Shown here: in pieces, positions 24,595 to 49,468 of the stretch
Position numbering within the stretch: the first letter of the stretch is position 1
Layout: every line of letters begins with the position of its first letter
DNA from: Chloroflexota bacterium
GTDB taxonomy: Bacteria; Chloroflexota; Limnocylindria; Limnocylindrales; CSP1-4
NCBI GenBank assembly: GCA_045804645.1
Contig: JBJMMR010000073.1
Span: 1,146-65,145 of the forward strand
Direction of reading: 5' to 3'
Length of the DNA: 64,000 bases
The notes under the pieces: generated by a model
Database searches by the model: none
What the model was told of the DNA's origin: nothing
What the model saw: only the letters and a program-made list of their open reading frames with translations
Position numbers and translations under genes: made by a program

Positions 24595-24666
24595 GCTCAT
24601 CTCATGTCACGTATGGCAGGGATCAGCTGACGAGTGCTCGCCTGGTGAGCGTCTGACAGAATCTCC
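24595..24666 (+). repeat. 72-nt dispersed repeat, copy R1 (two ~40-nt sub-units), homologous to 42786..42857
   Basis: Hand alignment gives about 52/72 identical positions, including the 12-mer GCTCGCCTGGTG and GATC.G.TGACGA. Confidence 0.7.
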
Positions 24667-36292: not shown

Positions 36293-36706
36293 GCAGCTTC
36301 ATGTCGGATGGCAGGTGGCGCCTTGCAGCGGCGCGCCTACGGTGTCCTCAGCACGAGACGGACCGCCGGACATCAAGACCATAGACCGGCGGCGCGTCGA
36401 TCCTCCGGCGGGATGCCGGGCGACGACGGAGCCGGCAACAGTTGCCGAACGGCGGTCCGCCGAAGCGCTATCCAACTGAAGAACAACCGAATAGCGCACG
36501 GACGACTGCATAGGCGATCCACAACCGAATATCGAACTGTTTCGCCGCACTGGCCGCTCGCGCGTGGGGACGACGAGCGGCCTCGCGGTGTCTCGGGGTC
36601 CTTCGCTGAGCGTCGCGGGCGCGGCGCGAGCGCCCGTGGGGCGGCGGCCCCGTGGCGAGCGTCGACAGCCGGGTGCCGCGCGCGCGTCGACCGCCGGGGG
36701 CGCCGT

Positions 36707-36880
36707 AGTTTGATGCATACCGATCGACGTGCCGGGTCGCTTCTCCTGGTGATGCACCTCGGCTGCATATCTCGCAGGAAACGTATTGCCCCGGGCCGGC
36801 GAAGGCCGTCTCTATATGCCGCTCATGTGCATCACGGAGCAACCCCTCCCACCCCAGCCAGCTTTGTGCATCACCGTCGG
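36707..36880 (+). repeat. ~175-nt dispersed structured element, copy A (GTGATGCA/TGCATCAC motif family)
   Basis: Hand alignment to 48245..48425 in the same orientation. Shared blocks: GATGCATA(C/T)C, GGTGATGCA.CTCGGC.GCAT, ATTGCCCCG.GGCCG, GTGCATCACGG.GCA.CCC, CTCCC.ACCCAG. Confidence 0.65.
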
Positions 36881-36963
36881 CGATCGAGACGCCTGGCGAG
36901 ACGCGCCACCGAGACGGGCGATCGAGACGCCCGACGAGACGTGCGACGACACGCGACCCAAAC

Positions 36964-37176
36964 ATGACGGCTTTCGGCAGGTACACGCCCGACACTGTTG
37001 CCATGTTCAACATCGAACTGGCACGGATCATCCAAGCGGAGCGAGAACAAGAGATCCAGGACGCGCTGCGACGGCGTCGGCTTCTGGACGGGAGCGACAC
37101 GAAGGGTGCACGCGACGAGCGCTCGGCGGCGGCGCCGCGTCTTCAGCGGCGCGCGTCTGGCGTGACGTCGCGGTAG
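36964..37176 (+). CDS. Possible small coiled-coil protein (70 aa, or 57 aa from ATG 37003)
   Basis: MFNIELARIIQAEREQEIQDALRRRRLL... looks helical, but there is no SD and it overlaps the 3' end of the convergent WYL gene by 34 nt. Confidence 0.25.
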   Translation: MTAFGRYTPDTVAMFNIELARIIQAEREQEIQDALRRRRLLDGSDTKGARDERSAAAPRLQRRASGVTSR

Positions 37177-38129
37177 CGGTCGGCGATCCGGTTCGCGAGC
37201 ATGACGACGCGATCGCGGATCTCCGGGGGCTCGAGCACTTCGAGATCGTGACCACAGGCGAGTAGCAGCCCAGGCACTTCTTCGGGGAAACCCAATCGGA
37301 GACGGAGCCGGATGGTGCCCGGCCGGCCCGGTTCCTCGATCCGCTCGGCAGCCGCGACGGTCCCGGTGCCGAAGACCTGGTTGAGCCGCCAGCCCTGGTC
37401 CTCGCGGATGCGGACCTCGACGAGGCTGCTCGGCTGTTCGCGCTCGTAGGCGGCGGTCGACTCGATCCAGAAGGACGCAAGATCGAAGTCGTCGGGTCGA
37501 TCGACGACCTCCTCGAGCAGGGTCGCGCTCACGACCCGTGACGCGCGATACGTACGGACCTGTCCGTCGACGGTCGCCACGACGTACCAGACCCCGCCCT
37601 TGAGCACGAGCCCAAGCGGACCGAGCGTCCTCACCACGACGTCATCGCCTCGGTCGTACTCGACGGCGACCGTGCGGCCCTCCCAGACAGCCGTCGACAG
37701 CGTCGCGAGATGGGGCACCTCCTCGTTCGCCTTGAACCATCCCGCAGCATCGAGGTGGAACCGCTGGACCAGCCGTGACGCGCGGGACCGAAGCTCCGGT
37801 GGGAGAGCGGCCATCACCTTGAGCTGCGCAGCGGCCACGACCGTGCCGAGTCCCAGTTGCGCGGCTGGCCCCGGCAGCCCGGACAGGAACAGCGCCTCGG
37901 CCTCGTCCGCGGTCATCCCGGTGAGGCGCGTCCGATAGCCGTCGACGAGGCGGATCCCGCCGAGCGGACCGCGCTCAGCGAAGATGGGCACGCCCGCGGC
38001 GCTCAGCTCCTCGACGTCCCGGTGGATGGTCCGGACCGAGACCTCGAGCTCGTCGGCGAGCTGCGCGGCGGTCATGCCACCCCGACTCTGGAGCAGCAGC
38101 AGGAGGTTCACGAGCCGGCTCGCGCGCAT
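37143..38129 (-). CDS. HTH-WYL-WCX transcriptional regulator (YafY/PafBC-like)
   Basis: ATG at 38129 in tracked ORF 37143..38195. MRASRLVNLLLLLQSRGGMTAAQLADELEVSVRTIHRDVEELSAAGVPI. WYL region VWYVVATVDGQVRTYRASRV. Confidence 0.85.
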   Translation of the reverse strand: MRASRLVNLLLLLQSRGGMTAAQLADELEVSVRTIHRDVEELSAAGVPIFAERGPLGGIRLVDGYRTRLTGMTADEAEALFLSGLPGPAAQLGLGTVVAAAQLKVMAALPPELRSRASRLVQRFHLDAAGWFKANEEVPHLATLSTAVWEGRTVAVEYDRGDDVVVRTLGPLGLVLKGGVWYVVATVDGQVRTYRASRVVSATLLEEVVDRPDDFDLASFWIESTAAYEREQPSSLVEVRIREDQGWRLNQVFGTGTVAAAERIEEPGRPGTIRLRLRLGFPEEVPGLLLACGHDLEVLEPPEIRDRVVMLANRIADRYRDVTPDARR

Positions 38130-38207
38130 CGACTCAGGATACGCACGATGTCGACAGTTTCTGTCAGATATGACGACGCTCGACCCGATGGCCACGCGCT
38201 CCAGCGC

Positions 38208-42785: not shown

Positions 42786-42857
42786 GCTCGTTTCGAGTGA
42801 CATCTGTCAGCGATCCGGTGACGAACGCTCGCCTGGTGGACATCTGGCCGAAAGTCC
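42786..42857 (+). repeat. 72-nt dispersed repeat, copy R2 (homologous to 24595..24666), followed by a third partial ~40-nt unit to about 42890
   Basis: Sub-units start with GCTCG at 42786, 42827 and 42864. Unit 1 contains the palindrome TGACA-TC-TGTCA. Confidence 0.7.
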
Positions 42858-47310: not shown

Positions 47311-48219
47311 ATGCCGCCGACCGGCGCGACGCGTCCTCGCCTCGCCCCGCCACCGCCGCCGCCCAGCGGGGTGCTGTTCTTCATCCATGGCGCCAACGAG
47401 ACGTCCGAGGGCCTGGCACGGAACGTGGCCCGGATCGAGGACCAGGTGCGGCGCCGCGGCTGGGATGTCCGGGTCGTCGCACCCGAATGGCGGCGACGAT
47501 CCGGCCTGCGACTGGGCAACTGGCGCAAGGCGCTCTATCGCGGCGCGCGGCCTGCGGCGATCTCGTTGGCGAACGTCCCCCGGGGCGTGGGTCGGACCGC
47601 GGTCCTCAGGCTCGTCACGAACTACTTCGAAGGGCGGCGGGAGATGCTGCTCGATACCGTCGGCGCCCAGATGCTGGCGGACGTGATCGGTTACCACGAA
47701 CATCGCGACTCGATCCAGGACGTGTTGCGAGGCGAGTTCGCGAAAGCCGCGAAGGCGGCCCGTGGCCGAACGATCGTCCCAGTCGGGCTCTCGCTTGGCG
47801 GCGTCGCACTCGTCGATCTCGTCGCGTCCTGGCCCGAAGCCCCGGTCGAGACATGTGTGACGGTGGGCTCCCAGGCGCCCCTGCTCTACACGTTCGACGC
47901 GATCCCGTCGCTGCCGTACGACGAGGCCGACCCGCCGCGTCTCCCCGTCCCGTGGTTGAACGTCTATGACAGCCGTGACTTCCTGTCGTTCGTCGCGGAA
48001 CCGTTGTTCCGGCGGACCGATGGTCTCGCGACCGTCGTCGACCTCCGGGTCCACTCGGGCAAGGACTTCCCCCGCTCGCATTCGGCCTACTGGGAGTTGT
48101 CGGCGGTGTGGGAAGGCATCGCGACCGCGTTCATGTGGCGCCGGACGGATCGACTGACGGTCCGGGAGGCGCGCGAGCTCGGCTTCGAGGCCCGGAAGGC
48201 GCCGGCTCCGCGGTCCTGA
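47311..48219 (+). CDS. Putative alpha/beta hydrolase-fold protein
   Basis: 302 aa. VLFFIHGANE, a nucleophile-elbow-like GLSLGG, and a late HSAYW. Family not recognised further. Confidence 0.55.
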   Translation: MPPTGATRPRLAPPPPPPSGVLFFIHGANETSEGLARNVARIEDQVRRRGWDVRVVAPEWRRRSGLRLGNWRKALYRGARPAAISLANVPRGVGRTAVLRLVTNYFEGRREMLLDTVGAQMLADVIGYHEHRDSIQDVLRGEFAKAAKAARGRTIVPVGLSLGGVALVDLVASWPEAPVETCVTVGSQAPLLYTFDAIPSLPYDEADPPRLPVPWLNVYDSRDFLSFVAEPLFRRTDGLATVVDLRVHSGKDFPRSHSAYWELSAVWEGIATAFMWRRTDRLTVREARELGFEARKAPAPRS

Positions 48220-48244: not shown

Positions 48245-48425
48245 TGTTGTGATGCATATCTGGCGTCGTCCAGCCAGATGTTCCTCGGTGATGCAGCTCG
48301 GCGGCATCACAGGGCGCTTTCCGATTGCCCCGCGGGCCGCTGCCGATCGCGCTCCCGTCCGACTTATGCAGGGGACGTGCATCACGGGGCACCCCGTCGT
48401 CCTCCCGACCCAGGTATGCATCGCC
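48245..48425 (+). repeat. ~175-nt dispersed structured element, copy B, with inverted 15-nt ends
   Basis: Ends GTGATGCATATCTGG (48249-48263) and CCAGGTATGCATCGC (48410-48424) are 13/15 reverse-complementary. Internal hairpin GTGATGC-N9-GCATCAC (48288-48310). GTGCATCACGG at 48377. Confidence 0.65.
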
Positions 48426-48473
48426 CGAACTCGGGCCGGACGGCTGCGGGCTGGACGGCTGCGAAGGCGTGCT

Positions 48474-48489
48474 TAGAACGACCGTTCTA
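48474..48489. promoter_or_regulatory. LexA SOS-box-like perfect palindrome TAGAAC-GACC-GTTCTA
   Basis: Has the GAAC-N4-GTTC core of the Gram-positive/actinobacterial SOS box. Lies 13 nt upstream of the radical SAM gene ATG. Confidence 0.5.
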
Positions 48490-48502: not shown

Positions 48503-49468
48503 ATGCGGCCGATCTATCGCGACGAACCCTGCCGCACTGCGCTCAACCGCGTCCGGGGCATGGGCTTCAAGTGGTCGCTGAACCCGTACATGGGTTGCGT
48601 CCACCAGTGCACGTTCTGCTTCGTGCGCGCCTTCGAGAAGATGGCCGACCGGCCCTCGGATTCCCGCTACGGCACCTCGATCCGGGTCAAGACGAACATC
48701 GTCGAGGTCCTCCGCAAGGAGCTCGCCCGCAAGTCCTGGAAGGGGGAGCAGGTCGTCGTCGGCACGGCGACCGACCCGTACCAACCCGCCGAAGGGCACT
48801 TTCGCCTCACCCGCGGCTCCCTCGAAGCGCTCGGCGAAGCCCGGACGCCGATCGGCCTCATCACCAGGGGCCCGATGATCGTGCGTGACGTCGACGTCCT
48901 CGCGTATGCCTCGGAGCGAGCGAAGGTCGGCGTGACGTTCTCCATCCCGACGCTCGACCAGGAGATCTGGCGGAAGACGGAGCCCGGAACGGCATCGCCG
49001 CGTCAGCGCCTCCGCGCGATCCGCACGTTGATCGACGCTGGGATCGACACGTCGGTCGGCATGGCTCCGATCCTCCCTGGCCTTTCGGACGATCCGGAGA
49101 AGATGGCCGAGGTCATCAAGGCAGCGCGCGATGCCGGCGCGACCGCGGTCTGGACGAACGTGCTCTACCTCAAGCCCGGGACGCGTGAGCACTTCCTCGA
49201 GAACCTTGCGCGAGACTGGCCCGAGCTCCTGCCCTCGTACGAGCGGCTCTACGAGGGTCGCGCGTACGTCGCGAAGGAGGTCGTCGACCCCGTCAAGCGG
49301 CAGGTCCGCGAGCTGGCCAAGCAGCATGGGATCGCCGATCGACGACCACGCCGCGCGGGGGCCTCGACGCAGAGCGACGGGGCGCCTGACGACCGCGAGG
49401 ATCGCCCGCCAGCACCGCTGGTGCCTCCGGGCGCCGAGCAGCTGTCGCTCGCGTCGGCGCTTCGCTAA
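48503..49468 (+). CDS. Radical SAM protein (Rv2578c / SplB-like DNA-repair-associated family)
   Basis: ATG at 48503 in tracked ORF 48230..49468. C-x3-C-x2-C cluster motif GCVHQCTFCF. 321 aa. Confidence 0.85.
   Translation: MRPIYRDEPCRTALNRVRGMGFKWSLNPYMGCVHQCTFCFVRAFEKMADRPSDSRYGTSIRVKTNIVEVLRKELARKSWKGEQVVVGTATDPYQPAEGHFRLTRGSLEALGEARTPIGLITRGPMIVRDVDVLAYASERAKVGVTFSIPTLDQEIWRKTEPGTASPRQRLRAIRTLIDAGIDTSVGMAPILPGLSDDPEKMAEVIKAARDAGATAVWTNVLYLKPGTREHFLENLARDWPELLPSYERLYEGRAYVAKEVVDPVKRQVRELAKQHGIADRRPRRAGASTQSDGAPDDREDRPPAPLVPPGAEQLSLASALR

Follow-up and report, generated by a model that had tools for sequence, protein, structure and literature searches.

The window analyzed here, a stretch of 64 kb, is part of contig C73 of the MAG G000 (3.05 Mb, 69% G+C, 77 contigs, 87% complete), which represents Candidatus Limnocylindrales, uncultured soil Chloroflexota. 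An earlier note on this DNA had described two related elements in the same orientation, copy A (36707-36880) and copy B (48245-48425), both lying in non-coding regions. Alignment with MAFFT bears out the relationship and the shared orientation, with a mean column identity of 77% (gaps counted), and both copies are indeed intergenic. To the left of copy A a plus-strand ORF ends at 36479, and to its right lies a minus-strand WYL-regulator gene with its end at 37143; copy B is preceded by a plus-strand gene that stops at 48219 and followed by a radical-SAM gene that begins at 48503. The octamer GTGATGCA and its complement TGCATCAC together occur eight times in the window against 1.2 expected, a number reached in none of 100 shuffled sequences, and six of the eight occurrences fall inside copies A and B. 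The inverted motif pairs that the note had named are present as well, I1 and I7 in copy A and I1-I3 in copy B.

Using genome-wide pattern and profile searches, we found that both copies are built from a basic unit of about 63 bp, in which a variable 29-nt spacer separates the outer motif (t)GATGCAYA from a 19-bp core palindrome, GATGCA-N7-TGCATC. Copy A, with refined limits of 36708-36876, is a composite of two convergent units with a 42-nt centre. Its left unit (36708-36771, plus strand), delimited by the profile match and the unit alignment, has the outer motif GATGCATA at 36712-36719 (plus strand), in columns that are invariant or near-invariant in the 23-unit alignment, and the core palindrome GATGCACCTCGGCTGCATA at 36751-36769, starting 39 bp past the outer motif. 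The right unit (36814-36876, minus strand), delimited by its profile match, has the core palindrome TATGCCGCTCATGTGCATC at 36815-36833 and the outer motif GATGCACA, which reads TGTGCATC on the plus strand, at 36865-36872. In contig coordinates, the two nhmmer matches are C73 37853-37916 on the plus strand (E 1.4e-11) and 38021-37959 on the minus strand (E 4.5e-9). The palindrome centres of copy A are 64 bp apart, corresponding to 6.0 turns of 10.65 bp, and orthologous composites are present in the relatives G053, also at 64 bp, and G064. Copy B, with refined limits of 48249-48427, likewise comprises two convergent units, here with a 52-nt centre. The left unit (48249-48310, plus strand) carries the outer motif GATGCATA at 48251-48258 and the core palindrome GATGCAGCTCGGCGGCATC at 48290-48308, and the right unit (48363-48427, minus strand) carries the core palindrome TATGCAGGGGACGTGCATC at 48365-48383 and the outer motif, TATGCATC on the plus strand, at 48415-48422. 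The corresponding nhmmer matches are C73 49394-49455 on the plus strand (E 1.6e-12) and 49572-49508 on the minus strand (E 2.1e-9), and the palindrome centres are 75 bp or 7.0 turns apart. On its right side copy A is abutted by a 31-nt direct repeat, GGCGATCGAGACGCC(T/C)G(G/A)CGAGACG..., which occurs in two copies 38 nt apart (36879-36947). Beyond this diverged part of the intergenic region, nucleotide conservation with G053 resumes at about 36960, at the start of a 70-aa ORF (36964-37176, plus strand) without a Pfam match, which is therefore perhaps a real small gene.

The genome-wide copy count that the note had proposed places copies A and B in a larger family. The G000 genome contains 23 units (nhmmer E 1e-8 to 1e-14), arranged as nine composites of two convergent units each, including copies A and B, and five solo units. 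The centres of the nine composites are 42-115 nt long, giving whole elements of about 169-245 bp with inverted units of about 63 bp. When loci from relatives were added, 38 of 39 neighboring unit pairs within 400 bp showed a plus unit followed by a minus unit and none were divergent, and the distance from outer motif to core, measured start to start, was 39 bp in 58 of 74 units. Most of the sequence blocks that the note had listed as shared by copies A and B proved to be unit motifs of this genome-wide family; the central block 'ATTGCCCCG.GGCCG' is limited to these two copies, and the centres of the nine G000 composites are otherwise unrelated. A common centre motif, or a derivation of the centres from the HTH gene described below, was rejected for this reason. 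Outside the units, the core palindrome pattern had six matches in the G000 genome and none in a reversed-sequence control. Weaker matches with 1-4 mismatches were set aside as coding sequence, since they translate into the form 'VMYLGRI', which we take to be an ABC-ATPase motif.

The note had also suggested that the 72-nt repeats at 24595-24666 and 42786-42857 belong to the same family. These repeats are 73% alike and share a core of about 30 nt (GACGARYGCTCGCCTGGTG...) with sites on contigs C38, C12, and C16. However, they lack GATGCA, and neither was matched by the unit profile at E<=100 with filters off. On sequence grounds, the 72-nt repeats form a small family of their own, with no relationship to the GATGCA units.

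A structured small RNA or a cis-regulatory leader, folding through the complementarity of GTGATGCA and TGCATCAC, had been one of the candidate identities of the element. A long imperfect hairpin can be drawn, which follows from the inverted arrangement of the two units. Nevertheless, a search of the whole 64-kb window against Rfam 15 at gathering thresholds yielded no matches, and RNAalifold on the 23 units returned only a 4-bp invariant helix, with no pair changed on both sides and no compensatory change. The folding energies of copies A and B were no better than those of shuffled sequence (z = -0.52 and -1.76, respectively), and within an element the left spacer is not complementary to the right one. 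The elements occur in every orientation relative to adjacent genes, and the 10.65-bp periodicity described below belongs to double-stranded DNA. We thus regard an RNA function as highly improbable.

To describe the conservation pattern of the units, we compared the units of G000 with their G053 orthologues in 17 pairs. Identity was 97.8% (306/313) at motif positions, in contrast to 51.2% (221/432) in the spacers; for orthologous units of G000 and G064 the values were 92.5% and 49.3%, respectively. The spacing of the two palindromes was assessed as the centre-to-centre distance in 38 composites from about ten species. The shorter distances were 41, 53, 53, 63, 64, 64, 66, 70, 74 (x3), 75 (x5), 85 (x3), and 86 (x2) bp, and the longer ones were 94 (x2), 95, 101, 105, 106, 113, 117, 118, 128 (x2), 135, 139, 212, 218, 223, and 225 bp. 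These distances cluster at integral multiples of a best period of 10.65 bp (Rayleigh R = 0.66), a value reached by none of 5000 sets jittered by +/-8 bp, for which the maximum was 0.56 when periods of 9-12.5 bp were scanned for each set. The phasing persists when orthologous duplicates or long distances are left out, and four of the 38 distances (70, 101, 113, and 135 bp) are clearly out of phase. At orthologous sites the length varies by species and the phase is kept, as at the C25 site (128 bp in G000, 105 bp in G053, and 86 bp in G064), the C11 site (117, 106, and 94 bp in the same three genomes), and the C6 site (139 bp in G000, 95 bp in G053, and 75 bp in G084). A period of 10.65 bp is a property of the DNA double helix and is as predicted by cooperative protein binding on one face.

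The genes flanking the elements encode GatB, a LacI-type regulator, a luciferase-like oxidoreductase, a glycerol kinase, a response regulator, a deacetylase, an EamA protein, a WYL regulator, and a radical SAM protein, and they run convergent, tandem, and divergent around the elements. An operator of a regulon was rejected on this basis: the neighbors are unrelated housekeeping genes and occur in all orientations, which does not describe a simple regulon. Known operator motifs (ArgR, Rex, and others), considered while an actinobacterial origin was assumed, were dropped once the lineage proved to be Candidatus Limnocylindrales.

The distribution of the units in related genomes was assessed with a sequence-only covariance model. 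Units are present in 30 of 81 genomes of the genus, with 1-30 units where present (30 in G053, 23 in G000, 18 in G075, 16-21 in G064, 11 in G042, and 10 in G045), and in one of 35 genera sampled across the class. The composites of the relatives have the same convergent layout as those of G000. For an orthology test, the joined flanks of 11 G000 elements were searched against five relatives, and the G064 units were mapped back onto G000. G053 carries units at nine of the 11 G000 sites searched, and G064 shares at least 11 G000 sites, counting the home locus and weak matches at C62 and C18c. The copies common to G000, G053, and G064 are orthologous and therefore predate the split of these three species. 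More distant species showed the corresponding sites without the element: at the C50 site, G084 and G052 gave single contiguous alignments across the joined flanks, as did G084 at the C11 site; and spacers of 9-50 bp are left at the C50 and C25 sites in G041, G014, G052, and G084. Such empty sites in outgroup species indicate that the elements were inserted. At the copy B site G041 has a 66-nt spacer, compared to 263 nt in G000, with a short remnant of the right unit only. No direct repeat was visible at the element ends as a target-site duplication, the exact boundaries being blurred by diverged intergenic sequence and the empty-site alignments being too diverged to fix them. A search for a transposase-bearing element with the same ends found none; the only longer form carries a gene for a 95-aa HTH protein, and G000 yielded nothing else. 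Outside the motifs, similarity among the copies of one genome is only about 50%, and almost all copies are orthologues shared by the three species, so that there is no sign of recent transposition.

The gene in question is a 93-95-aa ORF inside the longer composites of G053 and G087, in which Pfam detects HTH_3/HTH_31 only (26.2 and 36.8 bits for PF01381, HTH_3, against a cutoff of 23). Matches to it occur in 47 of the 81 genomes of the genus, mostly one per genome. An inward-facing unit pair brackets the gene in G053, G092, G052, G072, G087, G014, G063, and G045. In seven of these eight genomes the locus is flanked by both an amidohydrolase and a malate synthase gene; at the G087 locus only the amidohydrolase was matched. 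In G007, an orthologue at the same locus with 47% identity has several GATGCG-N7-TGCATC palindromes on both sides. An AlphaFold model, built from a shallow alignment of four sequences, predicts a five-helix XRE fold (pLDDT 77), for which the best Foldseek matches in the PDB are dimeric regulators, namely the R-M controller proteins C.BclI, C.AhdI, and C.Esp1396I, as well as HipB, ClgR, SinR, and 434 Cro. At the sequence level the PDB matches are weak, to 434-type repressors with E of about 0.004-0.06. Several such XRE regulators bind paired operators cooperatively. The home-locus core palindrome lies about 95 bp upstream of the HTH start codon, outside the likely promoter as judged by inspection, and hence simple autorepression is not evident. 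In G072 (L097 1501-2610) the HTH reading frame runs for 369 codons without the usual stop, and the downstream nhmmer match covers the outer part of the flanking unit only; a further altered form of the partner gene may be present here.

On contig C47 of G000, the order at the home locus is amidohydrolase, unit, beta-lactamase-family gene, unit, HTH remnant, a predicted DUF427-like gene, and malate synthase. The HTH gene is cut to its last ~35 codons, and about 520 bp are missing relative to G053, in which this stretch includes the second unit as well as the HTH motif and the promoter region. A tblastn search for an intact HTH gene elsewhere in the G000 assembly gave only an XRE paralogue on C27, 33-37% identical. 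The gene at the home locus is also wholly deleted in G064, truncated in G042, and frameshifted in G045, where an assembly error could be responsible, and in G075 a degenerate gene-less composite stands in its place, with a 49%-identical HTH gene and flanking units located elsewhere. The beta-lactamase-family gene at this locus (C47 10248-12178), which encodes a 517-aa protein (PF00144) whose C-terminal region is hydrophobic, lies between two units in direct orientation and is present in G000 and G064, and not in G053, which suggests a repeat-mediated gene insertion or rearrangement.

The explanation that we favor, and consider probable from the sequence comparisons, is that copies A and B function in double-stranded form, as 'double-operator' modules without a gene of their own, and are putatively bound by protein. 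A dimeric sequence-specific protein would occupy each palindrome, and the two bound dimers would touch across the centre by looping or wrapping of the DNA, a contact that would require both palindromes to face one side of the helix. The protein most likely to bind would be the ~95-aa Cro/CI-type (XRE, HTH_3) protein, as inferred from its position between units and its co-occurrence with them. On this reading, the common ancestor of the G000 species and two sister species gained the modules by insertion at about a dozen intergenic sites, and selection on the motifs and the helical phase has preserved them since. In G000, the ~520-bp deletion has taken the half of the protein with the HTH, its promoter, and one flanking unit, so that the modules would be either orphaned or served by an unassembled or different binder. 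Of the candidate identities put forward by the note, an array of half-sites for a DNA-binding protein is the one that gained support, from the motif-only selection, the fixed 39-bp spacing, the quantization in helical turns, and the bracketing of the XRE gene. Several points stand against this explanation: the link between the HTH protein and the sites is one of position and co-occurrence, several unit-rich genomes (G000, G064, G042, G045, and G075) have a damaged partner gene or none at the home locus although the sites are still conserved, the position of the core palindrome there does not suggest simple autorepression, and four of the palindrome distances are out of phase.

A partner gene in single copy, with the repeat on both sides of it and always at one locus, is also what would be expected of REPIN- or MITE-like non-autonomous mobile DNA. 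Here, the inverted doublet would be the replicating entity, the motifs would be recognition sites for a trans-acting enzyme, and the HTH gene between units would represent the home copy of the family, like a RAYT gene flanked by REPs. The inverted arrangement of all but one of the neighboring pairs (38 of 39), the gains at sites that are empty in outgroups, and the patchy copy number of 0-30 per genome in the genus are consistent with this, as are the G075 arrangement, with the HTH gene and units at another locus and a gene-less composite at the home locus, and the beta-lactamase-family gene between two direct units at the G000 home locus. However, the partner is a 95-aa HTH_3 protein without a recognizable catalytic domain, to which tblastn finds nothing else related, and neither a target-site duplication nor a sharp boundary is definable. 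Moreover, the copies are old, orthologous among three species, and show no sign of recent transposition, and the quantized turns and motif-only conservation point to selection on binding geometry, neither of which a transposition substrate would obviously need. We consider mobile DNA unlikely as the main account of the elements. The MITE-like identity raised in the note holds insofar as the elements are dispersed inverted doublets gained at new sites; neither a transposase partner nor a target-site duplication was seen, and the orthologues are conserved rather than decaying. A mobile origin is compatible with the double-operator explanation, and may explain the spread of the modules rather than their maintenance.

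Species-specific changes in the core palindrome also count in favor of the double-operator explanation. At the innermost position of the core half-site, 17 of 17 G000 and 25 of 25 G053 units have A, and 14 of 15 G064 and five of six G092 units have G. Its symmetric mate shifts from T toward C in the units with the G dialect, G042 units prefer G at the mate position, and the outer motif GATGCA is unchanged across the dialects. That many orthologous loci have changed in parallel, symmetrically, and at one specific position fits co-evolution with a putative dimeric reader; homogenization by very short tracts is an alternative, and the pattern does not fit neutral decay. Since the G064 dialect has shifted without an HTH gene in the assembly, a binder would still be present there. 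This leaves two options, an HTH gene in DNA that was not assembled (completeness of the MAGs is 68-87%, and 71% for G064) or a reading of the sites by another protein.

The latter case would apply if the sites were read throughout by a different DNA-binding protein, such as a nucleoid-associated or chromosome-organizing factor, with the XRE gene merely carrying sites in its flanks. The motifs and the phasing are kept in G000 and G064, both of which lack an intact HTH gene, and the dialect shift in G064 was concerted with no HTH gene found in its assembly, as would be expected under such a reader. On the other hand, this type of palindrome flanks the HTH gene on both sides across the genus, including the 47%-identical orthologue, and unit-poor genomes often have their units beside the HTH gene. 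In addition, the unit family tracks the sub-clade with close HTH orthologues, and MAG incompleteness can account for some of the missing genes. We consider a binder other than the HTH protein unlikely.

Among known systems, the closest analogue of the GATGCA modules is REPIN/RAYT, in which REP doublets are associated with REP-associated tyrosine transposases (Bertels & Rainey 2011, PMC3116915; 2011, PMC3337134). Both are short extragenic repeats scattered between genes, mostly as inverted doublets with a variable spacer (PMC3116915, PMC3337134). Each has one partner gene per genome, flanked by repeats at a fixed, vertically inherited locus, and the copy number varies widely among relatives. 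The partner differs, being a ~95-aa Cro/CI-type HTH protein here and a Y1/HUH (IS200/IS605-like) transposase in the case of RAYT. Unlike the hairpin-forming REP, the 63-bp unit described here has two parts, contains a 19-bp palindrome in double-stranded DNA, and gives no consensus hairpin beyond four invariant base pairs. Also unlike REPIN/RAYT, the doublet spacing is quantized in helical turns, and the copies are old and orthologous across species rather than recently amplified. The likeness to MITEs consists in small size, inverted ends, intergenic location, and presence or absence at orthologous sites between species. The differences are the lack of a visible target-site duplication and of a related transposase-bearing element in our searches, and the strong purifying selection on the internal motifs and length phase.

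With the XRE/Cro-CI systems (the R-M controller C proteins C.Esp1396I, C.AhdI, and C.BclI with their C-boxes; HipB operators; lambda/434 OR-OL) the likeness lies in the predicted fold of the partner, which matches these best, and in palindromic operators of ~17-19 bp that are paired near the regulator's own gene. Cooperativity in these operator systems depends on helical phase. In contrast to their few operators at the regulator's own locus, the operator pairs without a gene number in the dozens here and are spread over the chromosome; the sites flank the gene on both sides, outside the likely promoter, and no toxin or R-M gene adjoins it. Dispersed architectural sites are represented by matS/MatP and by the BIME/REP clusters, which bind IHF or gyrase. 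Like these, the GATGCA family comprises tens of palindromic putative protein sites chromosome-wide with no link to the function of their neighbors. It differs in its paired, phased, and bipartite architecture, in its restriction to one genus, and in having a candidate binder gene that is bracketed by sites and repeatedly lost. A full-text search of the literature turned up neither a description of the GATGCA repeat nor one of any repeats in Limnocylindria.

The usual interpretation of dispersed repeats in bacteria is either mobile DNA in decay or elements of the REPIN type, which are linked to a transposase. The GATGCA repeat has a REPIN-like population structure, yet its partner is a plain DNA-binding protein, the putative binder, and the repeat carries signatures of selection for protein-binding geometry in the motif-only conservation, the integral-turn spacing that survives indels, and the species dialects of the sites. 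Taken further than the double-operator explanation, and only tentatively, the family might represent a vertically inherited 'operator population', in which a Cro/CI-type protein and tens of phased pads would serve chromosome architecture, insulation, or silencing as a lineage-specific system, the species dialects would co-evolve with the binder, and the pads would outlive repeated losses of their partner. If true, the family would add to REPIN/RAYT a second kind of repeat-plus-partner association, one whose partner lacks a recognizable catalytic domain. Two questions are made testable by the family, namely the spread of binding-site modules without a recognizable transposase and the recruitment of small phage-type repressors as genome-wide architectural factors. 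In each genome of these abundant uncultured soil Chloroflexota, the family flags about 14 loci to which annotation pipelines would assign nothing.

Two regulatory features of the DNA-damage type were observed in the window, one next to each copy. The gene adjoining copy A (37143-38195, minus strand) encodes an HTH_11-WYL-WCX regulator of the PafBC/WYL type. Next to copy B and outside it, a LexA/SOS-box-like palindrome, TAGAACGACCGTTCTA (GAAC-N4-GTTC), is located at 48474-48489, 14 bp upstream of the radical-SAM gene. This palindrome is kept at the same place in relatives, as TCGAACGACCGTTCTA in G041 and as TCGAACATCTGTTCTA in both G042 and G046.
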